A stretch of DNA of 64,000 nt from Patescibacteria group bacterium (GTDB lineage Bacteria > Patescibacteriota > Patescibacteriia > Patescibacteriales > WJLG01). The translations under genes were made by a program, and so were the position numbers. The notes below the pieces were generated by a model that worked only from the letters and a program-made list of their open reading frames with translations, had not been told where the DNA came from and searched no databases. Location of the stretch: positions 6,513 through 70,512 of the forward strand of contig JAQTUZ010000002.1 in NCBI GenBank assembly GCA_028707065.1. Reading direction: 5' to 3'. This document shows, in pieces, positions 22,120 to 59,600 of the stretch (position 1 is its first letter; every line of letters begins with the position of its first letter).

Positions 22120-22180
22120 GCTTCCGCTCGTTCTTCTTCATGGAGCTCGCGACACAATTGTTGCGGGCTCTCTTTTTTTA

Positions 22181-22683: not shown

Positions 22684-23244
22684 ATGCCCAATAAAAATTT
22701 AGAATTACCAAATCAGCCGACTTTGGCGTCCGGGCAAGAGCCAGAAGCCGCCAGACAATTAGGGAGCGAACAGGCGCAAGCCAGAAATGGCAATGTTCCC
22801 GAAAATGAACCGCAAGGGGATACTTTGGAACAGCAGCAAAGCGCGGCCCGGATCGCCCAGGAAAAAGAAGCTTCGGCCAAGACTTCCGCCGGGGAGGAAG
22901 GAGCGCTCGACGCCAAACTCAATCCCACCACCAAACTTTTGCAAGGAGCCGAGCGCATCCTTATTACCCCGGGATTTGCCTTAGGTTTTGCCTGGATCAA
23001 TATTCATGTTTGGTTTTTAAACAGGATTTTCGGCGAAAAATTATTTTGTAATCTGGGCAAGGAATGGGCTCCCACCGATCCGAGCCTGGCCGCGAGTTTA
23101 GGCCTGGGGGAAAAAATACTGCTGATCATTCTGGATGTTGTCGCCTTGGTCGCTTTGCTTGTGGCAGCGTATGTTATTTTGGAAATAGTCAGAAAATTAT
23201 ATCCGTTATTGAAAGTTTATTTATGGTTCGCGCAATTTTCTTAG
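22684..23244 (+). CDS. hypothetical membrane protein, first gene of the T4SS-like block
   Basis: 186 aa. Low-complexity hydrophilic N-terminal half, then two hydrophobic helices (ILITPGFALGFAWINIHVWFL; ILLIILDVVALVALLVAAYVIL). Confidence 0.5.
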   Translation: MPNKNLELPNQPTLASGQEPEAARQLGSEQAQARNGNVPENEPQGDTLEQQQSAARIAQEKEASAKTSAGEEGALDAKLNPTTKLLQGAERILITPGFALGFAWINIHVWFLNRIFGEKLFCNLGKEWAPTDPSLAASLGLGEKILLIILDVVALVALLVAAYVILEIVRKLYPLLKVYLWFAQFS

Positions 23245-23340
23245 GATGGTTTATTCCGCGTCGAATATTTTGAGCAGTTTTTTTTCAGGATTCATTCGGT
23301 ATTTTTTCAGGATATTTTGAAGTCAATAATTTTTTTCGCG

Positions 23341-26184
23341 ATGGGAGAAAGAAAGATGAAAAATAAAAAATTTCATTTCTTGAATGCCAAGACAGTTTTT
23401 TTTGTTGTCTTGTTTTTGCTGGTCGGCTTATTTTTTGCCAATCATTTTGTTTTCGCCCAACCCGTACCTGCCCAACAGACCGCGGGCATTCCTGCGGTTA
23501 CGGGTGGCACCACTTTAACGGGAGGTACCGGCAGCACGGCTGCTACCGGTAGCGGCGGCGGCAGCGGTATTTCCGACTGGATCGCCAATACCCTTTCTTT
23601 CATCGTCGGCGGCCTGATCAGCACTGTGGGGGTTCTGCTCATGATATTAATGAAAGGAGTGATTTTCGTGGCCCAGTATAATGATTTTACCAGCTCGGCT
23701 CCGGTTACCAACGGCTGGGTGATCGTGCGCGATCTCTGCAATATGTTTTTTATTCTGATCCTCTTGCTCATCGCTTTTGCCACGATCTTGCGCGTCGAAG
23801 GATATGATATCAAGAAAATGGTGCCTAAGCTGATCATCATGGCAGTCCTTATTAATTTTTCCAAAACCATCTGCGGCCTGATCATTGATTTCGCCCAGGT
23901 CATCATGAACGCTTTTCTTAGTCCGATCGCGGTGATCGGCCCCGCGAATATCACCAGCATGCTCGGTTTGCAAGATTTGATGAAGTTTTCTCCCGGTACC
24001 ACCACAGCCGCGGATAGTTGGAAAATTTTTGGCGCCTATGTTTTCGCTTTAGCTTATGTCTTGATCGCCTCCGTGGTCTTGCTGGTTATTTTCGCTGTCT
24101 TGATCGTCAGGGTCATTATGCTTTGGATTTACATCGTGCTTTCACCATTGTCTTATTTGTTAGCGACTTTTCCTCAAGGGCAAAAATACGTTTCGCAATG
24201 GTGGGATGAATTCACCAAAAATGTCATTGTCGGCCCGGTCTTGGCTTTTTTTCTCTGGCTGTCTTTTATTTCTCTGGGCAATTCAACTCCGGGAACCACT
24301 ATTTTGGGAAATAACGCGCCAAGCGGTGATTTAGTCAAAATAACCGATTCAATGCCCAAGGAGTTAACCAGCGCGATGACTCTTGACGCGCTGATCAAAT
24401 TCGCCATTGCTATCGGGATGCTCGTCGGCGGCCTGATCGTCACCCAGCAGATGGGCGGCTATATGGGCAAGATCGCCGGCCAGGGCATGGCCAAGATCCA
24501 AGGCGGCGCCAAACTCTTGGCCAAGGGCGCGCGGAAAGCCGTGACTGCTCCCGTGAAATATGCGGGTGGTTTAGGTATTGACGCGCTCCAACATAAAGGC
24601 ATCGTTGATTTGAATATTCCCCGGGCTTGGAAAGGATTTCAGGAGAGAAGACAGGAAAGGAAAGCATCGCTGTATAACCTGGGCCAAAAGCAGGCCGCGG
24701 AACGTTTACAAAAGACCGGTATTGTTGGCGGCGCCTTGGCTTTGACCGCCATGCCGCGCGATGCCTATAATCAACTTAACAGCAGGGAGGGATTAGTGGA
24801 AAGACTGCGGGGAGGCAAGAGAACGGCGGAGTTAAGAACTGAAAAAGGGAAACAGCTTGCCGCAGAGGAGAAGAAATTAACCGTCGCTCAACGTTTAAAA
24901 GAGATTGATGATCGGTCAATTCCCGCGGTGATGGCAGAGCAGGACGACAAGGCAAGAATTCAGGCGCAAATGGCGGGATTGGATCACGACCAGCGCAAGA
25001 ACGGTATTACTAGCGAGAAAGATGAAATTACTGCCGCTAAAAATAGAATAGCAACGCTTCAAGAGGGTCCGGCCAAAGATCAGGCTGAAGCAGAAGTGCG
25101 CGAAAAAGAGAAGAGGCTGGATTGGATGAAGCAAGTTGACGCAGATATCGGCGATGAAAAAGGCGAGAAAGCCGATCCGGAAGCGATTGCGGATAAAAAA
25201 GCGGCTTATACTGCTGCTGCAGACCCGGTCGCGAGGGCGGAGCAAAGGCAAAAAGAAGCGGCCAAGAGACAAGAACTGGCAAAGGAATTAAGTTCTGCCG
25301 ATTTGGCGACTTATGAAAAAGAAAAATCAACTGAGCCTTTTGAACAAAGGGTGAGAGCGGCGAGGGCAAAGCAAGGCGCTTATGCGCCTTTCTACAATGC
25401 CGAAGCCAGAAACGCCGGGCAGCAAGCTGAAGCGGTGGAGGGGGCAAAGACTAAAGATATTCTGGATTCCGACGAAAAATTAAGAATGTTAATTTCCGCG
25501 ATTAAAAATAAAAACCAGCCGGCGGTTAGGGCGATTTTCAAGCAAATGGCGATGAATGGCGATGATAATGAAGCTCTGCAGCCTTTGGTGGGGGATACTT
25601 CCGCTTTCGGCATCCAAAAGCTGATGAGAGCTTTATCCGGTACTTGCACTAAGGAAGAATTGGCGGAAAACCCCGATTTAGCCAATCTTAACGCCGGCTT
25701 CTCCGAGCAGGACTCTATGGCTTTGGGTTCTGAAATCGGCATGATTAACAAACAGACTAATCATTGGAACGCTACGGCGCCTTATAAGATGCGAGGCGGC
25801 GTTTGGGAGAAAAGCACGGAAAAAGATATGTCGGATTTCCGCAGCGCGGAAATATCCAAAATGGATCCCCAGGTGATCGCCAGAGCTTTTAACCGGTTGG
25901 CTTACGGCCGTGAAAATAACAAGAGAGAATTTAAGTTGGATGCTGCCGGCGTGATCAGTTTGAGGCTATTGGATAACGAGAACGGCATTAAGCAGATTGA
26001 CGGAAGAATGACGCAAAATACGGCGACGAAGTTGACTCAGGGTGATTCAGGCAAGAAGCTGATTGAATTGGCTAAAAATGGAATTTTATCCCAGCAGATT
26101 GTCGATATGCTTTTTAAGCGGGCGAGAACTACGGCTAAAAATCCAGCAGCCGATTTGGATGAGATACATAAGGTTTTGGGGTAA
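23341..26184 (+). CDS. VirB6/TrbL-like polytopic T4SS membrane protein with long hydrophilic coiled-coil C-terminal domain
   Basis: ORF track start is TTG 23317; ATG candidates at 23341 and 23356. Signal/TM, a Gly/Thr-rich stretch, then at least 6 hydrophobic helices (..LISTVGVLLMILM.., ..MFFILILLLIAFATIL.., ..IIMAVLINFSKTICGLIIDFAQVIMNAFL..) as in TrbL/VirB6. About 550 aa of charged, K/E/A-rich tail. Confidence 0.6.
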   Translation: MGERKMKNKKFHFLNAKTVFFVVLFLLVGLFFANHFVFAQPVPAQQTAGIPAVTGGTTLTGGTGSTAATGSGGGSGISDWIANTLSFIVGGLISTVGVLLMILMKGVIFVAQYNDFTSSAPVTNGWVIVRDLCNMFFILILLLIAFATILRVEGYDIKKMVPKLIIMAVLINFSKTICGLIIDFAQVIMNAFLSPIAVIGPANITSMLGLQDLMKFSPGTTTAADSWKIFGAYVFALAYVLIASVVLLVIFAVLIVRVIMLWIYIVLSPLSYLLATFPQGQKYVSQWWDEFTKNVIVGPVLAFFLWLSFISLGNSTPGTTILGNNAPSGDLVKITDSMPKELTSAMTLDALIKFAIAIGMLVGGLIVTQQMGGYMGKIAGQGMAKIQGGAKLLAKGARKAVTAPVKYAGGLGIDALQHKGIVDLNIPRAWKGFQERRQERKASLYNLGQKQAAERLQKTGIVGGALALTAMPRDAYNQLNSREGLVERLRGGKRTAELRTEKGKQLAAEEKKLTVAQRLKEIDDRSIPAVMAEQDDKARIQAQMAGLDHDQRKNGITSEKDEITAAKNRIATLQEGPAKDQAEAEVREKEKRLDWMKQVDADIGDEKGEKADPEAIADKKAAYTAAADPVARAEQRQKEAAKRQELAKELSSADLATYEKEKSTEPFEQRVRAARAKQGAYAPFYNAEARNAGQQAEAVEGAKTKDILDSDEKLRMLISAIKNKNQPAVRAIFKQMAMNGDDNEALQPLVGDTSAFGIQKLMRALSGTCTKEELAENPDLANLNAGFSEQDSMALGSEIGMINKQTNHWNATAPYKMRGGVWEKSTEKDMSDFRSAEISKMDPQVIARAFNRLAYGRENNKREFKLDAAGVISLRLLDNENGIKQIDGRMTQNTATKLTQGDSGKKLIELAKNGILSQQIVDMLFKRARTTAKNPAADLDEIHKVLG

Positions 26185-26207
26185 TATTAAATTTTTGAGC
26201 TTGAATT

Positions 26208-27155
26208 ATGGCGATAAATTCTTTGCCGACAAATAAAACCAGCTATCAAGACCCGTCGTTTTTAACCAAGGTTGAGGATTTTTTAAATTCTGCCGCGGCC
26301 GAGGATGATTCTAAGCGGGCCCTGGTTTTAAGCCGGATTATTGCGGAATTTTTGACGCGGAAAAAAAGTGAGTTAGAACGCAATCCTGACATTTACGATT
26401 TTTACCGGAAGGCCTTGGTAAAAGCGCAATTCATCGCTTTGCCGCTTTTGGACAATAATGTTGTTATTGATCTCCTTAAAAATCATTTTGTCAGCCAGTT
26501 CGAGATTGATCTGTATAATCTCGCGGATAAATTTAGGACTAAATTGATTGGTATTCCAGTCTATGAAGACCGCGACGCTTTGCGGAGAGAAGTCGGCAAA
26601 ATTATTTTAGCCAGCGGGCAACTTTTGACCGGCGGGGCAACGCCGCCGCGCACGGTCGGCGAATGGATCAAGGATTACAGCGCCAAATTAGGCGTCGGCC
26701 GCGTGGACAGCTTGAAAAGAACCCAATATTTTCTTGATCTGGGCCGGGAGAAAAAGTTAAACGAGAAAGACCAGGGAAAATTAAAAATATTGTTTGATCT
26801 TTATGAGGAAACCAAATTATCCTCCTTGGATCCTTTTGGCTATGATTATGACGTTCCCGTGATAGTCCAAAATCAATATTTTAGCTACAAAAGAGGCTTG
26901 CTGGAAAAATTGGGAGGAAATGAAAATGAATTGGCGAAGATCAATGAGTTATTAAAAACCGGTACGTTGACCGCGGCAGTAGCCGGAGAAAAACCGGCAA
27001 CTGTCCCGGGCGCGCCGAGCCGGCCGCCGGATGCCGCCGCCGACAAGCGGATCGCCGACTTAAAACAAACCGCGGCCCGATATCGTCCCGGCAGCCTGGA
27101 AAGAAAAGCGGTGGAAGCGGAAATACGGAAATTAGAAGTTAGAAGTAAGAAGTAA
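26208..27155 (+). CDS. hypothetical protein of the T4SS-like block
   Basis: 315 aa, no motif recognised. The last codons (..LEVRSKK) are encoded by the left inverted repeat of the downstream cassette. Confidence 0.55.
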   Translation: MAINSLPTNKTSYQDPSFLTKVEDFLNSAAAEDDSKRALVLSRIIAEFLTRKKSELERNPDIYDFYRKALVKAQFIALPLLDNNVVIDLLKNHFVSQFEIDLYNLADKFRTKLIGIPVYEDRDALRREVGKIILASGQLLTGGATPPRTVGEWIKDYSAKLGVGRVDSLKRTQYFLDLGREKKLNEKDQGKLKILFDLYEETKLSSLDPFGYDYDVPVIVQNQYFSYKRGLLEKLGGNENELAKINELLKTGTLTAAVAGEKPATVPGAPSRPPDAAADKRIADLKQTAARYRPGSLERKAVEAEIRKLEVRSKK

Positions 27156-27160
27156 GAAAT
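27134..27160. repeat. left 27-bp inverted repeat flanking the four-helix-bundle gene
   Basis: agaagttagaagtaagaagtaagaaat is the exact reverse complement of 27553-27579. Confidence 0.95.
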
Positions 27161-27178
27161 ATTAAACAGTTATTTAAT

Positions 27179-27553
27179 ATGAGGGAGGGAAGTTATCAAG
27201 ATATTGATCAGCGGACGTTTAATTTTGCCAATAGAGTTATAAAGATGGTTCCTCAATTGCCTAATAATGTGGCAACTTGGAAAATTGGCGCCCAGGTAAT
27301 TGATTCGGCCACGTCGGTTAATTCTAATATTGTTCAAGCTCGCGGAGGATTATCAAAAAAGGATTTTACCCACCACTTAAGGATCTCTTTAAAAGAAGCG
27401 CGGGAAACAAAGAGATGGCTGGAAATGATCGTTGCTGTCGGCTTGACCGATATTCAGAGAATGCAGCCTTTGTTGAATGAAAACGAGGAAATAATTTGCA
27501 TATTAGTAACAATGATAATAAATTCTCAAGATGAAGATTTGAACAAGAAGTAA
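27179..27553 (+). CDS. four-helix-bundle protein (23S rRNA intervening-sequence protein family)
   Basis: 124 aa. FNFANRVIKMVPQLP..IGAQVIDSATSVNSNIVQARGGLSKKDFTHHLRISLKEARETKRWLEMI matches the family pattern (F.F...V...LP....Q..RS..SI..NI.EG.GR.S.KDF..FL.IA.GS..E...WL). Confidence 0.8.
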   Translation: MREGSYQDIDQRTFNFANRVIKMVPQLPNNVATWKIGAQVIDSATSVNSNIVQARGGLSKKDFTHHLRISLKEARETKRWLEMIVAVGLTDIQRMQPLLNENEEIICILVTMIINSQDEDLNKK

Positions 27554-27579
27554 TTTCTTACTTCTTACTTCTAACTTCT
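27553..27579. repeat. right 27-bp inverted repeat flanking the four-helix-bundle gene
   Basis: atttcttacttcttacttctaacttct, a perfect complement of 27134-27160. Begins at the last base of the stop codon. Confidence 0.95.
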
Positions 27580-27589
27580 TACTTCAACT

Positions 27590-29161
27590 GTGTTGGAATA
27601 TTTAGAAAAATTTAATAATTTGCCCTCCGAGGTTAAGCAGAAAATTTCTTCCGGCGCGGTAATGGCCGCAATCGAAGAGTTGGAGGGCGAATATGGCCTG
27701 GAACTGGCCGGCTTTGTCATCAGAGTCATGGTGGGCGAATTGTATTATAAAAATCTTACCGCTAATCTGATCATTGAATATGATTTAGAACCGGAGGTGG
27801 CCGAAAAGTTGGCTCAGGATTTGCAGAATAAGATTTTTGATTCAGTGACGGACTATTTAAGCGGAGCAAGGCCGGCGATGAGTCTCAAACAGCCGGAAGC
27901 CGGTTCGCCATTTTTTGGCAATCAAGCCCCGTTAAAATCGCCCTTGCCCCGGGTAGCGGCACCGGCTGGGAGCAACCCGGCTGTTGCCAAGCCGATCGCT
28001 CCGATAGTGCGGCGCGCGCCGATAAATCCGGCGGCCGCGGCCAATTACTTGGAAGAAGATCAGGCGGATATCACCGCGGCGGGAAAAATAACCACGGCGA
28101 TGAAAACGATGCCGCAGGAAAAATTCAGCGCGCTATTGGCGGGAATAATCGCGGAAGCGAAAATCAGTTTTGCCAGCGAAACTTTGTCCAAAAGATTCCA
28201 GGAAATTTTGCTTTCTTATTTGCGCGGCGTGCGGACTAAAGTCGGGGTTAAAGAAAATTTATTGAAAGATTTTGCCTCGGGCGGCGTGAAAATGTCCGAG
28301 TCCGAAGCGGACCGGATCTTGAATATCGCGCAAAAAAAATTGGCCGGCGATGAAGAAAAATTTTCTCCCAGCCCCGGCAAAGTCACGGCCAAAAGTAACG
28401 CGGGCGGCACCAATTTTATTTTTAACGAGGAAGAGATCAAACAGGCTCTTGCCCAGCGAAACGGGATGATGAAAAGCAAGACGCTTGATTTGGGGGTGTC
28501 TGGCGCTCGCGATGTCGGTTATGATCTATCGGCTTTGAAAAATTCCTCCTCCGCCAAGGCTTCCGCCTACGCTAAGGCTTCGGCGGACAAGACGGAGGAC
28601 AAGACGGAGGACAAGTCGGAGGGCAAGCCGGCCGCGGCTCAAGCCCCGGTGAAAAATATTCCGCCCAGCGTTCCTGAAACTACAGAAATCATACTCAAGC
28701 CGCTCGCGGCAATTCCGGCTAGTCCGGCAAAGGTTGAAACCCCGGCGCCGGAAAAAATATCAGGTAACGAACCGAAGCGAACGGCGGCCGTGGTGGGAAA
28801 TAAAAAAAGAATGGAAGATATCAAGCCTTCGCCGCGCGTCATGAGCCCGATTGACGAATTGGCTTATATGGATTTGGTTAATTTTCGCCGGCTTGATATT
28901 GCGCCGGCCAATCGGGTGGCCAAGATCGAAGCCAAGATCGCCCTTTTGGAAAAAGAAGGGATTGATAAAAAGATCGAGGGCATCCGGGTCTGGCGGCTCA
29001 ATCCGGTCAATAAAACTTATTTGGCGATGGGGCAGGAAAGCATCGGTTCAGGCAAAACCATTACTGATATAATCAAAGAGCGCAAAGACCAGGGATTGAA
29101 CTACCTTTCCCAGGAAGAATTCGAAGCGGTGATGGATTTAAATAACAATCTTAGGTTTTAG
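27590..29161 (+). CDS. hypothetical protein of the T4SS-like block (low-complexity centre)
   Basis: 523 aa, GTG start. Central Ala/Pro/Lys-rich region with KASAYAKASADKTEDKTEDKSEGK repeats. Structured N- and C-terminal parts, no motif recognised. Confidence 0.5.
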   Translation: MLEYLEKFNNLPSEVKQKISSGAVMAAIEELEGEYGLELAGFVIRVMVGELYYKNLTANLIIEYDLEPEVAEKLAQDLQNKIFDSVTDYLSGARPAMSLKQPEAGSPFFGNQAPLKSPLPRVAAPAGSNPAVAKPIAPIVRRAPINPAAAANYLEEDQADITAAGKITTAMKTMPQEKFSALLAGIIAEAKISFASETLSKRFQEILLSYLRGVRTKVGVKENLLKDFASGGVKMSESEADRILNIAQKKLAGDEEKFSPSPGKVTAKSNAGGTNFIFNEEEIKQALAQRNGMMKSKTLDLGVSGARDVGYDLSALKNSSSAKASAYAKASADKTEDKTEDKSEGKPAAAQAPVKNIPPSVPETTEIILKPLAAIPASPAKVETPAPEKISGNEPKRTAAVVGNKKRMEDIKPSPRVMSPIDELAYMDLVNFRRLDIAPANRVAKIEAKIALLEKEGIDKKIEGIRVWRLNPVNKTYLAMGQESIGSGKTITDIIKERKDQGLNYLSQEEFEAVMDLNNNLRF

Positions 29162-29206
29162 TAAAAAATAATTTCGAAAAGCAGAACATTAACCCATTTT
29201 AAATTA

Positions 29207-29290
29207 CGGAAATTTGATATTAGAAATTGGAAATTTGTCGCTTCGGTAGTGACCATGAAACCAATTTCCAATTTCCAATTTCCAATTTCG
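29207..29290. repeat. GGAAATT/CCAATTT heptamer inverted repeat
   Basis: Left arm cggaaatttgatattagaaattggaaatttg. Right arm ccaatttccaatttccaatttccaatttcg. Confidence 0.85.
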
Positions 29291-29299
29291 TCCGTGCAG

Positions 29300-29746
29300 A
29301 TGTTCACTGTTCCTCAATTCATCGATGTTGAGGATAAAATTATCGGGCCGATCACTACCAGGCAATTCATCATTTGTCTGGTGGGTTTGGGCGTTTTGGT
29401 TCCGGCTTGGCGATTGTTGGATCTTGTCTGGTTTATTTTGGTGGGCTTGCTTGATTTCGTGATCGTCGGCGCTTTCGCTTTTGCCAAGATCAACGGCCGA
29501 CCTTTTCATTATTTTGTTTTGAATGTCATTCAGACCATGAAAAAACCGAATTTGCGCATTTGGAATCATCATAATCCGCTGAAGGATCTGCTTTCGGCCG
29601 AAGAAATAGCCGCCGAGGAAGTGCGGACAGTGACCAAGCCAACGGCAACCCGCGAACGCCTGGTCAGCTCCCATCTTAAGGAATTATCTTTGATTGTTGA
29701 TACCAAGGGAGTTTACAAGGGTGAAGAAGGGGAGGAGATTGTTTAG
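29300..29746 (+). CDS. PrgI-family / VirB3-like small T4SS membrane protein
   Basis: ORF track start 29249 lies in the heptamer repeat; I prefer the in-frame ATG 29300. MFTVPQFIDVEDKIIGPITTRQFIICLVGLGVLVPAW..INGRPFHYFVLNVIQTMKKPNLRIW follows the PrgI pattern (..K..G.LT.RQ, two TM helices, ..dG.P........p..R.W). Confidence 0.65.
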   Translation: MFTVPQFIDVEDKIIGPITTRQFIICLVGLGVLVPAWRLLDLVWFILVGLLDFVIVGAFAFAKINGRPFHYFVLNVIQTMKKPNLRIWNHHNPLKDLLSAEEIAAEEVRTVTKPTATRERLVSSHLKELSLIVDTKGVYKGEEGEEIV

Positions 29747-29817
29747 AAGAACATAGAGCATAGAACAGAGAGCAGGCACGTGGAAATGTTCTTTGTTCTA
29801 TGTTCTATGCTCTTGCT
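29746..29817. repeat. family E (CATAGAAC-word) hairpin
   Basis: agaagaacatagagcatagaacagagagca / tgttctttgttctatgttctatgctcttgct. Confidence 0.85.
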
Positions 29818-29866
29818 TGAATCAGCCGAACAGTTTGTTAAAAATAAAACACCAATTAATTATTGT

Positions 29867-30547
29867 ATGCCAACAAATCAGCTCGCTAAGGGAAAGATTT
29901 CCATTTCCACCCAGCAGTATTTGGATATTGCCGAGGTTAAGGATGACGTGGTGGTGATGCGCGACGGCACTTTGCGGGCCGTACTTTTGGTTTCCAGCAT
30001 CAATTTCGCTTTGAAAAGCGAAGACGAACAGGAAGCGATCGTTTCCTCTTACGTCGGCTTTTTGAATAATATCAATTTTCCGGTGCAGATCGTCATCCAG
30101 TCGCGCCGGCTGAATATCGAAGGCTATTTGGCTGAATTGAAGCAAAAAGAAAAAGAGCAATTGAACGAACTGCTGAAGATCCAAACGCATGAATACATCC
30201 AATATATCCAGGAATTGGTGTCCTTGGGAGATATTATGAGCAAGAGTTTTTACGTGGTGGTGCCGTACAATCCTTTATCCGACAAGCACAAAGGATTTTT
30301 TTCCTCGATCAACGAAGTTTTGAAACCGGCGACCTTGGTGCGGATGAAAGGAAAAAGATTTGATCGCTACAAAAAAGAATTGGACCGCCGTTTGGAATCG
30401 ATCGCCTCGGGTCTTGCTTCGGCCGGCCTGAAAACCGTGCAGCTGGATACGCAAGGTTTGATCGAATTGTATTATAATACTTACAATCCGGTAACTTCGG
30501 AAAACGAAAAATTGACCGAGATGAAGAATCTGCAGATAACCGAATAA
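29867..30547 (+). CDS. T4SS protein resembling the detached N-terminal domain of VirB4/TrsE/PrgJ-type ATPases
   Basis: ORF track start GTG 29780 lies in the hairpin; I prefer ATG 29867. YLDIAEVKDDVVVMRDGTLRAVLLVSSINFALKSEDEQEAIVSSYVGFLNNINFPVQIVIQSRRLNIEGYL follows the pattern I recall for the N-terminal region of Gram-positive VirB4 homologues. Confidence 0.5.
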   Translation: MPTNQLAKGKISISTQQYLDIAEVKDDVVVMRDGTLRAVLLVSSINFALKSEDEQEAIVSSYVGFLNNINFPVQIVIQSRRLNIEGYLAELKQKEKEQLNELLKIQTHEYIQYIQELVSLGDIMSKSFYVVVPYNPLSDKHKGFFSSINEVLKPATLVRMKGKRFDRYKKELDRRLESIASGLASAGLKTVQLDTQGLIELYYNTYNPVTSENEKLTEMKNLQITE

Positions 30548-30549
30548 TT

Positions 30550-30655
30550 CTCGCAACCCGTAACCCGTAACTCGTAACCCGTTACGCGACGAGATAATAA
30601 TTTAGAAAAATATTCATAAGCACGCGTTACGAGTTGTGAGTTACGCGTTATGAGA
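30550..30655. repeat. CGTAAC-word hairpin (family F)
   Basis: tctcgcaacccgtaacccgtaactcgtaacccgttacgcg / cacgcgttacgagttgtgagttacgcgttatgaga. Confidence 0.85.
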
Positions 30656-30660
30656 ATCAA

Positions 30661-32586
30661 ATGATTGACATAAGAAGATCTAATTTAGAAGAAAAAAAGC
30701 CGCCAACCGAAGAGGAGGTGCTGAACGCGCAGGCCGGCAACGAGAACGTGGCGGTCGTTTCCGAGCTGATCGAGGAGGAAAAAGCTTTCCGCCGCGGAGT
30801 TTTGTCAGTGCTGGATCTGATCGCTCCGGCCGCGATGCAGATGTTTCCCGATCATCTCCGCCTGGGCGATAAATTCGTGCGGACGATTTTTATCATCGGT
30901 TATCCGCGCTACATCAGCGTCGGCTGGTTCGCGCCGGTCATTAATTTGAACGAAGTTTTCGATGTGGCGATGTTTTTCTATCCGGTCAATACGGCGATCA
31001 TTCTTAAGCAATTAAAGAAAAAAGTAGGTTCGCTCGAAGCGCAGATAATTTCCGACGCGGAAAAAGGCGCGGCCCGCGATCCGCTGCGCGAGACCGCCCT
31101 GAAAGATATCGAATATTTGCGCGACGCGCTGACGCAAGGCATTGAGAAATTTTTCCAGTTTTCTCTTTATGTCACGATTTACGCTGATAATAAAGAAAAT
31201 TTGGATAAGCTGTCCAATCAGGTCGAAGATATTTTCGGTTCCCGCCTGGTCTATTCCAAAAAAGTTTTTTTCCAATCCGAGCAGGGCTTTAATTCCACTA
31301 TTCCGCTTTGCAATGACGAACTGTACATCACTTTTAATATGAATTCTTCGCCGGCCGCTTCTTCTTTCCCTTTTATTTCGAGCGATCTGACCTCTGATCA
31401 CGGAATTCTATACGGCATCAATCGCCATAATAACAGCTTGATCCTCTTTGATCGTTTCAGTTTGCAGAATGCCAACAATGTCGTTTTTGCCACTTCCGGA
31501 GCGGGCAAAAGCTATGCCATCAAGCTGGAAATTCTGCGTTCGCTGATGATGGGCACGGACGTGATCATCATTGATCCGGAATATGAATACAAGCATTTAG
31601 CCGAATCGGTCGGCGGCACCTACATTAATATCTCGCTGGCTTCGGAAGAGAAGATCAATCCGTTTGATCTGCCCCAGTCGATCGGCGGCGAATCCAAGCC
31701 GGCCGATATCATCCGCGGCGCGGTGATCACCGTCAAAGGTTTGGTCAGGCTGATGCTGGGCGATCTCACTCATACCGAGGATTCCATCGTTGACCGGGGA
31801 CTTTTGGAAACTTACGCCAAGAAAGATATCACTCCCGACGCCGATCTGTCGCAAGTCGAGCCGCCGGTGATGGAAGATTTCCAGGAGGTTTTGGAAGGCA
31901 TTGAAGGCGGCGCCGACCTGGCGATGCGTTTGCGCAAATACACCGAGGGAACTTTTGCCGGCATTTTGAACAATCCGACCAACGTCAAATTGGACAATCA
32001 GCTGGTGTGTTTTTCCGTCCGCGATCTGGAAGACGAATTGCGGCCGCTGGCGATCTACACGATCATCAACTACATCTGGAATATTGTCCGCTCGGAATTG
32101 AAGAAAAGAATTTTGGTGATTGACGAGGCCTGGTGGCTGATGCAGAACGATGACAGCGCCAAGTTCATTTACGCTTTGGTCAAGCGCTGCCGCAAATATT
32201 ATCTCGGTGTTACTACCATCACCCAAGACGTCAATGATTTTTTGCGCTCGCCGTACGGGCAGGCGATCGTCACCAATTCTTCTTTGCAGTTGTTATTGAA
32301 GCAGTCGCCGGCGGCAATCGATCTGATCCAGAAAACTTTTGTCTTGACCGAGGGCGAAAAATATTTGCTGTTGGAATCGGGCGTGGGCGAGGGGATTATT
32401 TTCGCCGGCAACAAGCACGCCGCGATCAAGATCGTCGCTTCTTACAGCGAAGATCAATTGATCACTTCCGACCCGCGGCAATTATTGGAGATCGAAGAAG
32501 CCAAAAAAGAATTTGCCGCTTCAATGGGCCAGGAAGCGCAAGGAGAGCCGGCTGCCGCTCCGGCCTTGCCGGATATGGAAATATAA
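30661..32586 (+). CDS. virB4: type IV secretion ATPase VirB4 (TraC/TrsE/PrgJ family), ATPase portion
   Basis: 641 aa. VRTIFIIGYPRYISVGWFAPV (VirB4 middle-domain pattern), Walker A FATSGAGKSYAIK, Walker B RILVIDEAWWLM, and a TTITQDV motif. Confidence 0.9.
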   Translation: MIDIRRSNLEEKKPPTEEEVLNAQAGNENVAVVSELIEEEKAFRRGVLSVLDLIAPAAMQMFPDHLRLGDKFVRTIFIIGYPRYISVGWFAPVINLNEVFDVAMFFYPVNTAIILKQLKKKVGSLEAQIISDAEKGAARDPLRETALKDIEYLRDALTQGIEKFFQFSLYVTIYADNKENLDKLSNQVEDIFGSRLVYSKKVFFQSEQGFNSTIPLCNDELYITFNMNSSPAASSFPFISSDLTSDHGILYGINRHNNSLILFDRFSLQNANNVVFATSGAGKSYAIKLEILRSLMMGTDVIIIDPEYEYKHLAESVGGTYINISLASEEKINPFDLPQSIGGESKPADIIRGAVITVKGLVRLMLGDLTHTEDSIVDRGLLETYAKKDITPDADLSQVEPPVMEDFQEVLEGIEGGADLAMRLRKYTEGTFAGILNNPTNVKLDNQLVCFSVRDLEDELRPLAIYTIINYIWNIVRSELKKRILVIDEAWWLMQNDDSAKFIYALVKRCRKYYLGVTTITQDVNDFLRSPYGQAIVTNSSLQLLLKQSPAAIDLIQKTFVLTEGEKYLLLESGVGEGIIFAGNKHAAIKIVASYSEDQLITSDPRQLLEIEEAKKEFAASMGQEAQGEPAAAPALPDMEI

Positions 32587-32589
32587 TCA

Positions 32590-32672
32590 GAGAACATAAA
32601 ACATAGAACATAGAACATGAAAAAGAAAGAACATGATTAAGCTAATGTTCTATGCTCTTTGTTCTTTGCTCT
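32590..32672. repeat. family E (CATAGAAC-word) hairpin after virB4
   Basis: agagaacataaaacatagaacatagaacatg / atgttctatgctctttgttctttgctct. Confidence 0.85.
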
Positions 32673-32683
32673 ATTTATAAAAT

Positions 32684-33298
32684 ATGAATAAACGAACAAT
32701 CAGGACGATTATTTTGATCGCTGTCATTATTTTGCTGCTTCTCATCATTGCCTATTTTCTTTGGATGTTTAAGTTTCCGGGAAGCGTGATTCCCAAAGCG
32801 GTTAGCAAGGCCACGACCAGCCCGATAACCAATACGATCGGTCAGAATTCAACTATTGCCGCGACCACGCCGGTTACGCCGGTTAAACCAAGCGTTCCGC
32901 CGGCCTCCAGCGAGACGATTACCCAGGCCAACTTGGTCAAGATCGCCGACTCGTTCGCCGAACGCCTGGGCAGTTATTCCAATCAATCCAATTTCAGCAA
33001 TATCAATGACTTAAAACTTTTGATGACCGCCTCGATGCAATCTTGGGCGGATAAATATATCGCCGCCAACCAAAAAGCGGCTTATTCCGGCGTTTACCAG
33101 GGAGTAACCACCCGCGCGATTTCGACCGAAACCATTGATTTTAATGACGCCAAAGGCCAGGCTGACTTTTTGGTGCATACGCAAAAAGTGGCGCAAACCG
33201 GCGCGGACAAGCCGGTGGTCACTTATCAAGACATCAGTATTGCTTTCGTCAAGCAAAATAATATCTGGCTGGTGGACAATGCGGTGTGGAAAAAATAG
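32684..33298 (+). CDS. membrane-anchored hypothetical protein
   Basis: 204 aa. N-terminal TM (TIILIAVIILLLLIIAYFLW), a Thr/Pro-rich linker and a globular C-terminal domain. No motif recognised. Confidence 0.55.
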   Translation: MNKRTIRTIILIAVIILLLLIIAYFLWMFKFPGSVIPKAVSKATTSPITNTIGQNSTIAATTPVTPVKPSVPPASSETITQANLVKIADSFAERLGSYSNQSNFSNINDLKLLMTASMQSWADKYIAANQKAAYSGVYQGVTTRAISTETIDFNDAKGQADFLVHTQKVAQTGADKPVVTYQDISIAFVKQNNIWLVDNAVWKK

Positions 33299-33333
33299 AA
33301 AATTAGAAAATTAGAAAATTAGAAAATTAGAAT
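33297..33333. repeat. AGAAAATT octamer tandem array
   Basis: agaaaatt x4 then agaat, starting at the stop codon of the preceding gene. Confidence 0.9.
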
Positions 33334-33382
33334 CTCTTCTTATTTCTCGCCTATTAAATTATCGAAACAAGGAATTATTGCA

Positions 33383-34726
33383 ATGGCTAATAAGGTAAAG
33401 AACGTTTACGTCTGCACGAATTGCGGCGCCCAATCCATCAAATGGAGCGGGCGTTGTTTGGAATGCGGCGGCTGGGGAACTCTGACGCTTGAAACCGTGG
33501 CCGAAGGCGAAGCTAAGATAGCGGCAAGCGCGGTGCCGGCGGAAATCGTTGACTTGAGCAAGATCAAGGAGACAAATTTGAACCGGCTCGCGACCGGGAT
33601 CGGCGAATTTGATCGCGTGGTCGGCGGCGGCATCGTGCCTGGCTCATTATTGCTTCTTTCCGGCGAGCCGGGGATCGGCAAATCAACTATCGTGGCGCAA
33701 GTGGCGGACAAGATCGGGCTCTCGGGCATTGGAAAAGTTTTTTATGTTTCCGGCGAAGAATCGGCCGCGCAGGTGAAATCGCGCCTGGACCGGCTCAATT
33801 GCGGTTTGGATAATATCAAGTTCATCAGTGAAACCGACGCGGATAAAATTTGCGCCGCGCTCGTCAAAGAAAAGCCGGCTTTGGCGATCATTGATTCCAT
33901 CCAAACCGTTTATTGTCCCGAAGTCGCTTCCGAAGCCGGCGGCTTGAGTCAGATTCGCGCCGCGGCCGTAAAATTTTTGGAAGTGGCCAAGCAAAAGGGG
34001 GTTGCCGTGCTCTTGATCGGCCATATTACCAAGGACGGGCAGATTGCCGGGCCGAAATCTTTGGAGCATATCGTTGATACGGTGATATATCTGGAAGCGG
34101 ATACGACCAATGATTACCGCGTCTTGCGGGCGATGAAAAATCGCTTTGGTTCGGTGAATGAATTGGGAATTTTTGAGATGACCGGCGCCGGCTTCAAAGA
34201 AATCATCAATCCGTCGCTTGTTTTTGTGGAAACCGGTTTGGAAAATATTTCCGGCTCGGTCTTGTCGGCGGTGATGGAAGGCACGCGTCCGTTTATTGTC
34301 AATGTCCAGGCTTTGGCTACTAAAACGGTTTTTGGTTATCCCCAGCGCCGCGCTTCGGGCTTTGATCTTAATCGTTTGCAAGTTCTGGCCGCGGTGCTGA
34401 CTAAAAAAGCCAAAATAAATCTGATGGCCGAAGATGTGGTTTTAAATATTGTCGGCGGCTTGAAACTAAATGATCCGGCCATGGACTTGGCGGTTTGTCT
34501 GGCGATCATTTCTTCTTTATTAAATAAAGTCATCGATAATAAAACGATCGTTTTGGGCGAGGTCGGCTTGGGCGGGGAAGTGCGCTCGGTGCCGAAATTA
34601 GCCGAGCGCCTTAAAGAAGCGGAAAAACTTGGCTTCACGCGCGCCATAATTCCCGATGCCAAAATTTCCAGCGGCAAATTAAAACTTACCAAGATCAAGA
34701 GTGTTTCCGAGTTATTGGACATTTGA
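33383..34726 (+). CDS. radA: DNA repair protein RadA/Sms
   Basis: 447 aa. Zn finger CTNCGAQSIKWSGRCLECGGWG, Walker A GEPGIGKST, the KNRFG motif and a Lon-like C-terminal domain. Confidence 0.95.
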   Translation: MANKVKNVYVCTNCGAQSIKWSGRCLECGGWGTLTLETVAEGEAKIAASAVPAEIVDLSKIKETNLNRLATGIGEFDRVVGGGIVPGSLLLLSGEPGIGKSTIVAQVADKIGLSGIGKVFYVSGEESAAQVKSRLDRLNCGLDNIKFISETDADKICAALVKEKPALAIIDSIQTVYCPEVASEAGGLSQIRAAAVKFLEVAKQKGVAVLLIGHITKDGQIAGPKSLEHIVDTVIYLEADTTNDYRVLRAMKNRFGSVNELGIFEMTGAGFKEIINPSLVFVETGLENISGSVLSAVMEGTRPFIVNVQALATKTVFGYPQRRASGFDLNRLQVLAAVLTKKAKINLMAEDVVLNIVGGLKLNDPAMDLAVCLAIISSLLNKVIDNKTIVLGEVGLGGEVRSVPKLAERLKEAEKLGFTRAIIPDAKISSGKLKLTKIKSVSELLDI

Positions 34727-35554: not shown

Positions 35555-35579
35555 TTGCATTTTTTTTCACAGTAATAAT

Positions 35580-35617
35580 GAGCCCGGTTCGAAATCGAAC
35601 CGGGCTCAAATTTTTTT
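35580..35617. terminator. strong hairpin between convergent genes (bidirectional terminator candidate)
   Basis: gagcccggttcgaaatcgaaccgggctc (12-bp stem) followed by aaattttttt on the + strand. Lies 6 nt beyond the recG stop on the - strand. Confidence 0.6.
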
Positions 35618-35622
35618 AAATG

Positions 35623-37845
35623 CTATTCCAAATGAATTTTTTCTTCGAAAATTTCCATTTCCTGCTTTAAGGCAGGATTTTTTTTAAGGTCTGGATCGAT
35701 GTTGAGCAAGGCGACGGCTTCGTTTTGCGCTTGTTGCATTAATTCATAATCCCAGAGCGTGGCGATCTTCAATCCGGGGAAGCCGGATTGGGCCGTGCCG
35801 AAAATTTCGCCCGAACCGCGCAATTTTAAATCCATCTTGGCCAAGGCAAAACCGTCGGAAATTTTTTCCATCGCTTCCAGGCGGCGGCGAGTTTTTTCAT
35901 CGTTGGAAGAAGGGAAGAGAAAACAATATGATTGCTCGGCGCCGCGCCCGACCCGGCCGCGGAATTGATGCAATTGCGCCAAGCCGAAACGATCGGCGCC
36001 TTCGATCATCATAATAGTTGCGTTGGGAACATCGACGCCGACTTCGATCACGGAAGTGGAAACCAAGATTTTATATTCATTATCCAAAAAGCCGCGCATG
36101 ATTTCTTCTTTGTCTTTGGCCTTAAGTTTTCCGTGCAGGGCGGCCATCTTTATTTCCGGAAAAATTGCTTTGTCTAGTTTGATAAATTCTTCTTTGACTG
36201 ATTTCACGCCATAAAGATCAGATTCTTCAATCAGGGGACAAATGACAAAAGTTTGCCGGCCGGCCTTGATTTGTTTCCTGATAAAATCATAAGCGGCGGC
36301 GCGTTTTTCTTCCGGAACGATACGGGTCATGATCGGTTTGCGCCCGATCGGCATCTGTTTGATCACGGAAATATCCAGATCGCCAAACAGCGCCAGCGCC
36401 AGCGAGCGGGGGATCGGCGTGGCCGTCATCGATAATAAATGCGGCGTCAAATCCGAATGGCCGGATTTGGCCATTAAAGTTTTTCTCTGCTCCACGCCGA
36501 AGCGGTGCTGTTCGTCGATTACGGCTAAAGCCAAATTTTTAAATTTCACATCTTCCTGCAATAACGCATGCGTGCCGATAATGATATCTATTTCGCCCGC
36601 CCCGACCATCTTTAAAATTTCCGCCCTGCCGATTTTTTTCCCTCCTTGCGAAGGAGAGGTTAGGGGTGGTTTGTTTTTGTCATCCCGCCTGCCCGGCCAG
36701 GGAGCACAGGCCGCCTCGGCGACGGGGCAAGCAGCTGAAAAATCCCCTCTTGGGAGGGGTGGCCGCGCCGCGCGGACGGGGTGGGTATATTTATTTTCGT
36801 TATTTAAGAGTCGATAATTATTTGTCAGTAAGGCAATTCTTAATGGAAAATTATTTAGCAATCGCGAAAGCGAATTAAAATGCTGCTGCGCGAGAATTTC
36901 CGTCGGCGCCATCAAAACGCCCTGCTTATTATTCAGCGCCACGTTTAGCAAGGCGATGACCGCTACCAAAGTTTTTCCCGAGCCAACATCGCCGTTCAAG
37001 AGCCGCGACATCGGCCGCGTTTTGCCCAAATCGCCTAAGATCGCCCAAGCGGCTTGCCGCTGGTCGTCAGTTAATTTGAAAGGCAAACCGGCCACAAATT
37101 CCTTGGTATCTTTTTCCTTGAATTCGATTTTTACAGCAGTTGCCAAATCGCGGTCTTTTTTTACCAATTGCGATTTTAATTGCAGCAAAAATAATTCATC
37201 GAAGGCCAGGCGGCGGCGCGCCGTCTCCGCGTCAGCCCATTTTTTGGGGAAATGGATCAGTTTTATCGTTTCCTTGAGCGGTAATAAATTAAGTTTTTTT
37301 CTGATTTCTTCCGGCAGAGCGTCGGGTAAATTATGGCTAAGATCGATAACCTGGCTGATTAAAAATCTTAATTGTTTTTGGGTGATCTTTTCAGTCAAAT
37401 GATAATTGGGCACCAAGCCGGAAGTGTGAATCAGTCCTGATGTGCTGACCCGTTCATAAACCGGCGAGGCCATGGTCAAAACGCCCTGATCTTCGGCTCG
37501 GCCGGCGAGCGAGATTGTGTCGCCGACGCGCAAGGTTTTGCCGATGAACGGCTGATTGAACCAGATCACTTTTAAAGTTTCCGTTCCATCGTTAATGAGC
37601 GCTTCAGTGATATACATGCGGCGATGGTGGGCGCGGCGATTCTCGATCAATTCGATCTGGCCGATGACATTGGCGGCAATTCCCGGCCGCAAATCCTTAA
37701 TTTTGGTCGAATGGGTAAAATCGTCATAACGATAGGGAAAATAAAAAAGCAGATCTTCTGCGTTATTAAGACCGATCATTGCCAGACGCTTGCCGATGCT
37801 CGCGCCCACGCCTTTGAGGGAAGTTAGAGGAGTATTTAAGTCCAT
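35623..37845 (-). CDS. recG: ATP-dependent DNA helicase RecG with repeat-encoded internal insert
   Basis: ORF track start 37884 lies in CGAATAC-word repeats; I prefer the ATG at 37845 (MDLNTPLTSLKGVG). Wedge/OB N-terminus, helicase motifs GDVGSGKT, VIDEQHRFG, LSMTATPIPR, QLHQFRGRVGRG. Confidence 0.9.
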   Translation of the reverse strand: MDLNTPLTSLKGVGASIGKRLAMIGLNNAEDLLFYFPYRYDDFTHSTKIKDLRPGIAANVIGQIELIENRRAHHRRMYITEALINDGTETLKVIWFNQPFIGKTLRVGDTISLAGRAEDQGVLTMASPVYERVSTSGLIHTSGLVPNYHLTEKITQKQLRFLISQVIDLSHNLPDALPEEIRKKLNLLPLKETIKLIHFPKKWADAETARRRLAFDELFLLQLKSQLVKKDRDLATAVKIEFKEKDTKEFVAGLPFKLTDDQRQAAWAILGDLGKTRPMSRLLNGDVGSGKTLVAVIALLNVALNNKQGVLMAPTEILAQQHFNSLSRLLNNFPLRIALLTNNYRLLNNENKYTHPVRAARPPLPRGDFSAACPVAEAACAPWPGRRDDKNKPPLTSPSQGGKKIGRAEILKMVGAGEIDIIIGTHALLQEDVKFKNLALAVIDEQHRFGVEQRKTLMAKSGHSDLTPHLLSMTATPIPRSLALALFGDLDISVIKQMPIGRKPIMTRIVPEEKRAAAYDFIRKQIKAGRQTFVICPLIEESDLYGVKSVKEEFIKLDKAIFPEIKMAALHGKLKAKDKEEIMRGFLDNEYKILVSTSVIEVGVDVPNATIMMIEGADRFGLAQLHQFRGRVGRGAEQSYCFLFPSSNDEKTRRRLEAMEKISDGFALAKMDLKLRGSGEIFGTAQSGFPGLKIATLWDYELMQQAQNEAVALLNIDPDLKKNPALKQEMEIFEEKIHLE
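36639..36788. repeat. compound B + C + A element insert, in frame inside recG
   Basis: Family B 36639-36673, tgtcatcc-type hairpin 36679-36725, family A 36743-36788. The coding strand reads ..YTHPVRAARPPLPRGDFSAACPVAEAACAPWPGRRDDKNKPPLTSPSQGGKK... Confidence 0.85.
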
Positions 37846-37898
37846 AAATATAACGCGAATACTGCGAATTTTACGCGAATACAACGAACTATTTTTAA

Positions 37899-39752: not shown

Positions 39753-40094
39753 TGTGCTCTCGACAGGAAATCGAATCGTCGCTTCGCTCCTCTTTGGAAG
39801 GGGTTTCCACCCCTTCCAATACCATCCCCCGAAAACAGCGGGGAACTACCGTTCCCCAAACCCCTCCCGTTCGATTCCTGTCGGACAAAACAAAAACGGC
39901 CGCCGATGCGTCCGCTTTTGTTTTGTGCTCTCGACAGGAAATCGAATCGTCGCTTCGCTCCTCTTTGGAAGGGGTTTTCACCCCTTCCAATACCATCCCC
40001 CGAAAACAGCGGGGAACTACCGTTCCCCAAACCCCTCCCGTTCGATTCCTGTCGGACAAAACAAAAACGGCCGCCGATGCGTCCGCTTTTGTTT
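39753..40094. repeat. two tandem 171-bp units, each starting with a copy of the tRNA-Arg 3' end
   Basis: Units 39753-39923 and 39924-40094 differ at one base that I could see. Each begins tgtgctctcgacaggaaatcgaa (compare the tRNA 3' end tgtgctctcgacaggaatcgaa at 40095) and carries an inverted partner gttcgattcctgtcggac. Each holds three internal hairpins (ttggaagggg/ccccttccaa, ccccg/cgggg, gggaac/gttccc) and a terminator-like aaaacaaaa..ttttgtttt hairpin. Confidence 0.9.
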
Positions 40095-40096
40095 TG

Positions 40097-56405: not shown

Positions 56406-56409
56406 AATT

Positions 56410-59554: not shown

Positions 59555-59600
59555 TTTCGGTTTGCATTTTTGGCGTTATTTAAATTAGCAATTTGTAAAA

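Follow-up and report, generated by a model that had tools for sequence, protein, structure and literature searches.

A chromosomal, relaxase-less type IV secretion cluster in a Falkowbacteria-like Patescibacterium, with a VirB8-like subunit and lineage-specific components

The present study deals with a type IV secretion system (T4SS) gene cluster on a stretch of 64,000 nucleotides (the window, throughout this text) taken from contig JAQTUZ010000002.1 of a Patescibacteria group bacterium (assembly GCA_028707065.1, contig positions 6,513 to 70,512, forward strand). The cluster is located at 22684-33298 of the window and is of an already described kind, the chromosomal relaxase-less T4SS of Patescibacteria, found here in a Falkowbacteria member. 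It is probably a chromosomal and vertically inherited system of the Patescibacteria clade, derived from the conjugation machinery of the monoderm MPF-FATA type and uncoupled from DNA conjugation. It encodes a translocon of the cytoplasmic membrane with a split VirB4 motor, a PrgI/VirB3 protein, an extended VirB6-like protein and a VirB8-like protein, plus three lineage-specific proteins, named g1, g3 and g5 below. The core of an earlier reading of the same DNA (the original prediction), namely a monoderm-style T4SS with neither coupling protein nor relaxase in view, agrees with profile hidden Markov models (HMMs), structure prediction, synteny and the literature alike.

Gene content and conservation of the cluster

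Nine co-oriented genes had been claimed for the interval, and all nine were found as open reading frames (ORFs) on the + strand:

22684-33298, + strand: the T4SS cluster, nine co-oriented ORFs
22684-23244, + strand: g1, lineage-specific membrane-hairpin protein
23356-26184, + strand: g2, extended VirB6-like polytopic membrane protein
26208-27155, + strand: g3, cytoplasmic lineage-specific protein
27128-27585, + strand: cassette resembling an intervening sequence (IVS), with the gene g4 at 27179-27553 inside 33-nt inverted repeats
27590-29161, + strand: g5, cytoplasmic lineage-specific protein, always directly upstream of PrgI
29300-29746, + strand: g6, PrgI/VirB3-like small membrane protein
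29867-30547 (ORF called from 29780), + strand: g7, TrsD-like protein, free-standing but homologous to the N-terminal domain of VirB4
30661-32586, + strand: g8, VirB4 ATPase (CD1110 / MPF-FATA-like)
32684-33298, + strand: g9, VirB8-like bitopic protein

For comparison we used the best 80 related loci from tblastn and HMM searches, which are species-level relatives, mostly Falkowbacteria. Their labels read nearly all Patescibacteria, Candidate Phyla Radiation (CPR) or plain 'bacterium', together with three Nanoarchaeia/Nanoarchaeota and many automatic entries of 'uncultured Gammaproteobacteria'. VirB4 was present in all 80 loci, TrsD in 78, g9 in 76-77, PrgI in 75, g5 in 71 and the downstream gene for RadA in 61, in identical order throughout, an arrangement far beyond chance. 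The order g5-PrgI-TrsD-VirB4-g9 is kept in 71-78 of the 80 loci, and the IVS-type gene g4 was seen in only 7-12 of them. The window VirB4 shares 96% identity with a protein on a contig of a Falkowbacteria metagenome-assembled genome, and the window is a chromosomal segment of a Candidatus Falkowbacteria-like (ABY1) Patescibacterium.

Upstream, g1-g2-g3 were found wherever the flank of a locus extends far enough, and in many cases a gene homologous to that of the giant surface protein described below comes before them. In one sub-lineage, genes resembling those for a PfkB-type kinase, S-adenosylhomocysteine hydrolase (AhcY), MetK and a phosphoenolpyruvate-utilising enzyme lie between g1-g3 and g5-g9 (read from the sequences by eye, with no HMM). 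Since these housekeeping-like genes split the cluster there, we regard the system as two blocks, g1-g3 and g5-g9. The same intervening genes were considered as extra T4SS parts and were set aside on account of these resemblances.

The split VirB4 motor and PrgI

The claim of a VirB4 ATPase was borne out by profile NF045971, to which g8 is matched with an E-value of 2.6e-104 and 350 bits, above the cutoff of 325. The protein also matches P-loop_TraG, AAA_10 and DUF87, and both its Walker A (GAGKS) and Walker B (VIDEAWW) motifs are legible and intact in the translation. The match covers profile positions 180-730, and as it starts only at about position 180, g8 lacks the N-terminal part that TrsD supplies. 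This part corresponds to g7, which is matched by NF045975 (VirB4_plasma, E 3.9e-10, positions 86-233), NF041427 (TrsD, E 1.5e-5, 24.9 bits against a cutoff of 200) and NF045971 (positions 8-104), all of these matches falling under the curated cutoffs. Thus g7 and g8 match consecutive stretches of full-length VirB4 profiles, and g7 orthologues of about 226 aa are found in 78/80 loci with position and length kept. Judged from these profile matches, g7 and g8 together represent a VirB4 split over two polypeptides. A frameshifted VirB4 pseudogene was also considered for this pair and rejected, because the split is kept in 78/80 relatives. Among these 80 relatives, VirB4 identity amounts to 76-96%.

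The claimed PrgI/VirB3-like protein, g6, likewise held up, with a PF12666 match (E 1.7e-9) of 38.5 bits over a gathering score of 27, and its orthologues occur in 75/80 loci. On the basis of ortholog N-termini, two starts were corrected, and the probable ones are 29300 for PrgI ('MQQFTVPQFIDVE') and 29867 for the TrsD-like protein.

The VirB8-like and VirB6-like proteins

At the sequence level g9 had no match, either in HMM scans or in a profile search against PDB sequences. Its AlphaFold2 (AF2) model, built with 61 homologues at a mean confidence (pLDDT) of 87.7, comprises an N-terminal transmembrane (TM) helix, a disordered Pro/Thr/Ser-rich linker and an alpha+beta NTF2-like domain. The best Foldseek matches of this model in the PDB are CagV, Rickettsia VirB8, R388 TrwG (in the assembled T4SS), PrgL, TraH, TcpC and TraE, with E-values from 1e-4 to 5e-3 and TMt of 0.5-0.7. 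From the predicted fold, the topology and the position right after VirB4, we regard g9 as VirB8-like. Structure prediction and a search against T4SS components had been suggested for this gene (32684), and with VirB8-family proteins as the top matches it would hence be neither motif-less nor lineage-specific, as had been thought.

The second membrane component, g2, had been described as a VirB6/TrbL-like protein with a charged tail of 550 aa. Its true start is probably 23356, and the NCBI protein has 942 aa. In the TM scan, it consists of a signal peptide, about seven TM helices (residues ~85-380) and a hydrophilic helical domain of about 500 aa. The family has at least 1120 members, aligned mostly over more than 80% of the query, and those listed measure ~630-1040 aa. 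The window protein itself has no Pfam or NCBIfam match; four of ten family members match TrbL (PF04610) below threshold, the best with E 4.1e-5 and 23.9 bits against a gathering score of 25.9. When the AF2 model of g2 (mean pLDDT 80) was compared by Foldseek with 350,542 PDB chains, R388 TrwI/VirB6 took ranks 1-4 and 6, with E-values of 0.11-0.44 and TMt up to 0.52. A tblastn search of the TM domain against 72,556 plasmids gave no match. Taken together, the sub-threshold TrbL matches within the family, the Foldseek ranks and the genomic context suggest that g2 is VirB6-like, and this part of the claim stood. The 'tail' did not stand as such: residues ~440-950 reach a pLDDT of ~90-97, and they appear as an all-helical domain that is confidently folded in the model, conserved across the family and predicted to be cytoplasmic, for which neither a sequence profile search nor Foldseek returned a PDB match.

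The lineage-specific proteins g1, g3 and g5

Five genes of the cluster had been put down as motif-less. Those at 22684, 26208 and 27590 (g1, g3 and g5) stay lineage-specific, whereas the genes at 29780, 32684 and 27179 are now assigned as TrsD-like, VirB8-like and an IVS-type passenger, respectively. In g1, a variable hydrophilic N-terminus is followed by the conserved stretch '..AW.NLIPSFGL.LIWINIHVF...FCKLGEEW' and a second TM helix, and in about 30 loci an orthologue immediately precedes g2. Searches with g1 against Pfam, NCBIfam and PDB sequences returned no match, and a Pfam scan of its family members was likewise empty. A role of g1 as the VirB2 pilin was considered and dropped, as the protein has no signal peptide and no PF18895 or PF04956 match.

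Orthologues of g3 follow g2 in 35 loci, and no Pfam or NCBIfam match was found for g3. With 3180 representative clusters at E<=1e-3, the family of g5 is a large one, and it is built of conserved N-terminal, middle and C-terminal domains joined by low-complexity linkers; searches against Pfam, NCBIfam and PDB sequences gave no match for g5, and the Pfam scan of its family members was empty. Alignment of the two families by hhalign revealed a common N-terminal domain of about 100 residues (Prob 98.3%, E 2.3e-14, 110 columns), which is degraded in the g3 of the window.

Chromosomal setting and components that were not found

The original prediction saw no VirD4, relaxase, VirB11 or peptidoglycan hydrolase in the window. 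Domain scans of the window ORFs of at least 100 aa agree, for none of them encodes VirD4 or another type IV coupling protein (T4CP), a relaxase, VirB11 or a cell-wall hydrolase. Within the same 64 kb, no lytic transglycosylase, CHAP or M23 protein was seen near VirB4, the outer-membrane core proteins VirB7/9/10 were absent from the window ORFs, and domain scans found no integrase in or beside the cluster. The sole recombinase (48329-49690) belongs to a separate low-GC defence island. The features around the cluster that matter here are as follows:

22142-22171, + strand: terminator-like hairpin, 13-bp stem followed by a T-run, likely left operon boundary
33383-34726, + strand: RadA (DNA repair and recombination helicase, Pfam domains), conserved 3' neighbour of the cluster
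35579-35608, strand not assigned: bidirectional terminator-like hairpin with 13-bp stem, facing RecG, likely right operon boundary
35623-37884, - strand: RecG (domain match)

The genes upstream encode pyruvate:ferredoxin oxidoreductase (PFOR) subunits, DsbA, leucyl-tRNA synthetase (LeuRS), a major facilitator superfamily (MFS) transporter, KsgA, a TSP3-repeat protein, the 2816-aa Cys-rich surface protein and a secreted propeller-like protein, and those downstream RadA, RecG, tRNAs, a glycosyltransferase and a P-type ATPase. The GC content of the cluster, 0.44-0.49, equals that of its surroundings, in contrast to 0.32-0.38 in the island at about 50-60 kb. In the loci that contain both, identities are higher for VirB4 (76-96%) than for RadA (53-91%). 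Because of the housekeeping flanks, the native GC content, the synteny in 80 relatives, the higher conservation of VirB4 than of RadA and the lack of a T4CP, relaxase or integrase nearby, we do not consider the cluster a mobile element; these data speak for a chromosomal system that is passed on vertically and kept by strong purifying selection, not for a conjugative element.

On the + strand between 22171 and 35579, the promoter/terminator scan found no terminator-like site of comparable strength. Since no strong site of this kind separates g9 and RadA, RadA and the T4SS genes may share a transcript. Overall, the scan showed no enrichment in comparison with shuffled sequence, so the evidence for operon boundaries and for co-transcription is weak.

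Pilin, giant surface protein and DsbA-like genes

Two further genes of the window, both outside the cluster, may belong to the system:

~936-1, - strand: VirB2-like T4SS pilin gene, the 3' end running off the window start
12181-20631, + strand: giant N-terminally anchored putative surface protein, 2816 aa, Cys 3.2%

A pilin-like gene had been noted about 22 kb away at the window edge, and it was borne out by a PF18895 (T4SS_pilin) match (E 3.8e-6), whose 27.3 bits slightly exceed the gathering score of 26.6. In the product, a signal peptide and two hydrophobic helices are followed by a C-terminal extension rich in Cys, and the gene is the sole pilin copy in the window, 22 kb from the cluster. 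Among the 80 relatives, no pilin was found within 10 kb of virB4.

The adhesin-like giant neighbour of the original prediction is likewise real as an ORF, with an N-terminal hydrophobic segment and a Cys-rich sequence, and a weak CBM_4_9 match is its sole domain. In 12-17 related loci, a homologue precedes the T4SS cluster. We regard the protein as a candidate adhesin or host-contact protein; adhesins of the PrgB type have not been reported for this lineage. Before it stands the gene for a small membrane protein with TSP3 repeats (11551-12147).

In many relatives a membrane-anchored gene product of about 250 aa is encoded between g9 and radA (12589-13332 in locus L003 and 12557-13411 in L056 of the comparison set). 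By inspection, with no HMM, it looks DsbA/thioredoxin-like, with a CxxC motif, and not like a hydrolase. The window has no such gene between g9 and RadA; a DsbA-like gene is located at 3478-4092 instead. A link of these DsbA-like genes to the Cys-rich products, pilin and surface protein, is possible.

Comparison with known systems

T4SS-like loci had been said to be widely reported in CPR genomes, and the repertoire found here matches published ones (PMC12102498, PMC10633639). According to Wang et al. (2023), the T4SS of Saccharibacteria is essential for epibiotic growth; it is Gram-positive conjugative-like and pilin-bearing and has no recognisable coupling protein or relaxase (PMC10633639), and the need for it is independent of ComEC-mediated competence (PMC10633639, PMC12857230). 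Quiñonero-Coronel et al. (2025) described a distinct, chromosomal Patescibacteria VirB4 clade related to MPF-FATA, with abundant TrsD and PrgI, VirB6 and VirB2-like pilins, in which VirB8 is rare and nearly all from ABY1 (PMC12102498). In the same work relaxases were almost absent (109 in 103 Patescibacteria genomes), TrsD was widespread in Patescibacteria and essential in Southlakia, and the T4SS neighbourhoods of ABY1 contained recG, radA and comF, for which the authors suggested functional coordination (PMC12102498). A 2025 review counts the Patescibacteria T4SSs among the newcomers of the superfamily and regards it as an open question what extended VirB6 proteins do (PMC12857230).

The closest likeness is to this Patescibacteria-clade T4SS, exemplified by Southlakia epibionticum SEML1_0006-0019: a chromosomal locus with VirB4 and an adjacent TrsD-like protein, PrgI/VirB3 and a VirB6-like protein, virB4 having neither relaxase nor T4CP beside it, a VirB2-like pilin encoded in the genome, and a radA and recG neighbourhood of the ABY1 type. 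Unlike Southlakia and other Patescibacteria systems, the window has a single visible pilin gene 22 kb off and no pilin array in the cluster, and there is no lysozyme or peptidase downstream of virB4. It also possesses a clear VirB8-like protein, whereas none was found structurally in Southlakia, and compared with the Patescibacteria T4SSs in general its VirB6 carries the folded cytoplasmic domain of about 500 aa, with g1, g3 and g5 as class-specific additions.

As for the MPF-FATA systems, the order VirB6-like ... VirB3-like, VirB4, VirB8-like mirrors prgH-prgI-prgJ-(prgK)-prgL of pCF10 (PrgH-PrgL). The split into TrsD and VirB4 is as in pGO1 (compare TrsC-TrsE of pGO1/pSK41 and the CD1110 family of CTn2), and there is no outer-membrane core complex. 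In contrast to MPF-FATA plasmids and integrative and conjugative elements (ICEs), the window shows no relaxase, T4CP (PcfC), PrgK-type hydrolase or PrgB-type LPXTG adhesin, the cluster is not on a plasmid or ICE, and a VirB2-like pilin is present; outside VirB4, similarity is marginal. When family alignments were compared by hhalign with the single Prg proteins of pCF10, only g9 against PrgL scored (E 1e-3), and the PrgI-PrgI positive control was equally weak (E 2.6e-3). Because of this weak control the test had no power, and its negatives, including g2 against PrgH, are uninformative.

With respect to g2, extended VirB6 proteins such as the VirB6 paralogues of Rickettsiales, TraG of the F plasmid and TcpH of C. 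perfringens also join a polytopic VirB6-like N-terminal region to a large hydrophilic domain (PMC12857230); the helical C-terminal domain of the window protein differs in having no detectable sequence or PDB fold match. The T4CP-less systems Ptl of Bordetella, VirB of Brucella and ComB of H. pylori resemble the cluster in that they work with neither a relaxase nor a dedicated coupling protein; their function is protein export or DNA import. Unlike it, they belong to diderms and comprise a VirB7/9/10 core and, except for ComB, VirB11, and beyond VirB4 they are not homologous in detail.

Proposed role and alternative explanations

We propose that hexamers of VirB4/TrsD would be docked to the membrane via VirB3 and would supply the energy for moving a macromolecule across the single membrane and the wall, by way of a channel of VirB6 and VirB8. 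The large cytoplasmic domain of VirB6 might join with g3 and g5 in a substrate-docking platform that replaces an adjacent coupling protein, and the VirB2-like pilin and the giant Cys-rich surface protein could give contact to the host cell. The substrate would be a protein or another macromolecule exchanged with the host, and the system may serve the episymbiotic lifestyle through effector export, or through macromolecule exchange or uptake at the host interface, with no plasmid or ICE transfer.

Several points weigh against this picture. A T4CP or relaxase could be encoded elsewhere in the genome, and T4CP homologues distant from virB4 are common in Patescibacteria (PMC12102498). Of the two calls that the original prediction tied to HMM support, PrgI stands above its gathering score and VirB6 does not pass any threshold for the window protein, and the Foldseek E-values of g2 are weak (0.11-0.44). 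The NTF2 fold of g9 is a common one, and CaMKII hub and ARC6 domains match it too (E ~1e-3), lower in the list. The roles proposed for g1, g3, g5 and the C-terminal domain of VirB6 are pure inference, and the function is extrapolated from Saccharibacteria, another class with another gene set, in which pilin arrays and hydrolases lie inside the cluster. Furthermore, the tight synteny with radA and recG suits a DNA-related role at least equally well as effector export.

This last point leads to the main rival, a T4SS of the competence type that imports DNA, like ComB of H. pylori or Ced of archaea, with uptake possibly from the host and with RadA and RecG processing the incoming strand for recombination or nucleotide salvage. 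We consider it unlikely. RadA is directly downstream in 61/80 loci with no strong terminator-like site after g9, RecG is adjacent, ABY1 T4SS loci commonly hold comF, recG and radA (PMC12102498), the missing relaxase and T4CP suit an importer, and VirB4 has weak matches to CedB and CedD. However, the CedB/CedD matches span only about 70 residues of the generic ATPase core, close relatives could have kept this synteny simply by inheritance of the gene order, many loci have DsbA-like genes in between, radA is elsewhere in L012 and L049, and neither comF nor comEC was found in the 64-kb window. Moreover, competence in Saccharibacteria works via type IV pili and ComEC, and the T4SS is essential where a comEC deletion mutant is viable (PMC10633639, PMC12857230). 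A more specific version, to which we assign only a slim chance, would make the block g5-PrgI-TrsD-VirB4-VirB8-RadA a relaxase-independent importer of nucleic acids or other macromolecules, in which g3/g5 and the VirB6 domain form a new substrate-handling platform that replaces the coupling protein and passes host DNA to RadA/RecG.

That the cluster is a remnant or an active part of an ICE whose relaxase, T4CP and integrase lie outside the window is very improbable. VirB4 belongs to the CD1110 family typical of Firmicutes ICEs and plasmids, a serine recombinase and terminase are present at 48-64 kb, and the T4CP absence is established for the window, not genome-wide; but the cluster sits between KsgA/LeuRS and RadA/RecG at native GC, this chromosomal context is kept across 80 species, the recombinase is in a separate low-GC defence island 15 kb away, and relaxases are rare in Patescibacteria, as the counts given above attest (PMC12102498). 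Finally, a decaying, non-functional system, with the split VirB4 and the insertions as signs of pseudogenisation, is scarcely credible: VirB4 is indeed divided between two ORFs, the operon contains interruptions in the form of a passenger gene and long hairpins, and g3 has lost most of the common N-terminal domain, but the TrsD/VirB4 split recurs with intact ORFs in 78/80 relatives, TrsD is widespread and is essential in Southlakia, the Walker motifs are intact, and VirB4 is 76-96% identical across species.

A four-helix-bundle passenger and heptad-repeat hairpins

One of the nine genes, g4, encodes a four-helix-bundle / 23S rRNA IVS protein (PF05635 E 2.9e-18, TIGR02436 E 1.9e-23), and the inverted repeats around it are built of 7-nt units and are 94% complementary. 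Genes of this type were seen in only 7-12 of the 80 loci, in differing gaps of the T4SS operon, and for this reason we take g4 to be a passenger and no part of the T4SS. In the relatives, nearly all of 16 evaluable copies of four-helix-bundle genes are placed inside inverted repeats, mostly with 7-nt periodicity. Four gaps of the cluster contain related hairpins:

29209-29289, + strand: hairpin with heptad-repeat arms in the g5-PrgI gap (fold z -3.5)
29747-29814, + strand: hairpin with heptad-repeat arms in the PrgI-TrsD gap (minimum free energy -38.8 kcal/mol, z -5.3)
30547-30657, + strand: hairpin with CGTAACC-type repeat arms in the TrsD-VirB4 gap (5 matches against 0.11 expected; z -5.65)
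32591-32672, + strand: hairpin with heptad-repeat arms in the VirB4-g9 gap (fold z -3.5)

The arms are tandem 7-nt repeats with a unit sequence particular to each hairpin; some stems are empty and some bear genes, and two types of repeat unit, GAAGTAA and ACGCATA/CGTAACC, are common to both. Further heptad-repeat hairpins occur in the window at 930-1014, 2263-2363/2648-2788, 3379-3444 and 10447-10538, and cassettes or hairpins were also located in the relatives L001 (5713-6209, 7817-8228, 8685-9117) and L002 (8727-9152). In the g9-RadA gap, AAAATTAG stands four times in tandem at 33299-33335, with no complementary arm and a fold worse than that of shuffled sequence (z +2.3); this array could be half of a hairpin element.

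We also considered the intergenic hairpins as conserved regulatory elements of the T4SS and rejected this idea, as their position is not kept in the relatives (median z ~0) and similar hairpins flank the PFOR ferredoxin gene. Rather than regulating the T4SS, hairpins and cassettes seem to form a family spread over the genome, made up of IVS-like cassettes and of empty derivatives of these. The family looks mobile and resides in intergenic regions of mRNA, possibly with stems of the RNase III type. No description of such an IVS-like intergenic cassette family was found in the literature that we searched.

Other features of the window

Beside the serine recombinase, a low-GC (0.32-0.38) island at 48329-60386 holds an HKD(PLD)+SNF2 helicase (DrmD-like, E 1.3e-34), a type IIG restriction-methyltransferase (E 1.8e-77), two uncharacterised proteins of 786 and 248 aa and a NERD nuclease, and it looks like an acquired defence island. 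An Rfam LOOT RNA (RF03000; 84.5 bits, gathering score 46.4) was detected at 60555-60675 (+ strand). It closely precedes a gene whose product has a staphylococcal-nuclease domain (60752-61912), and phage terminase genes (61947-63924, - strand) are located nearby.

Two palindromes are each present twice beside a tRNA gene, the first of 42 nt (ACAAAACAAAAACGGCCGCCGATGCGTCCGCTTTTGTTTTGT, at 39885-39926 and 40056-40097) and the second GC-rich and of 26 nt (TTGGAAGGGGTTTCCACCCCTTCCAA, at 39794-39819 and 39965-39990); the ORFs that overlap this region (39794-40097) are doubtful. Additionally, the leucyl-tRNA synthetase (6077-9085) contains an inserted NUDIX domain at residues 408-530 (PF00293, E 6.8e-11).

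Implications

To our knowledge, the Patescibacteria T4SS is the sole T4SS known to be essential for the growth of its owner. What the present cluster adds to this kind of system is a structure-supported VirB8 assignment, a TrsD assignment with a conserved split of VirB4, and a folded VirB6 domain with no PDB match, together with the domain common to g3 and g5, the family sizes, the synteny with the giant surface protein and the identification of one of the nine genes as a passenger. The parts list of the ABY1 system is thereby sharpened and no new principle is introduced; the VirB8-like subunit matters in particular, as VirB8 has been reported to be largely missing in Patescibacteria. If the importer with a new docking platform were true, Patescibacteria would gain a T4SS-based route to host nucleotides or genes. 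In any case, g1, g3, g5 and the cytoplasmic domain of VirB6 are candidates for the missing coupling or substrate-recognition function of these systems.

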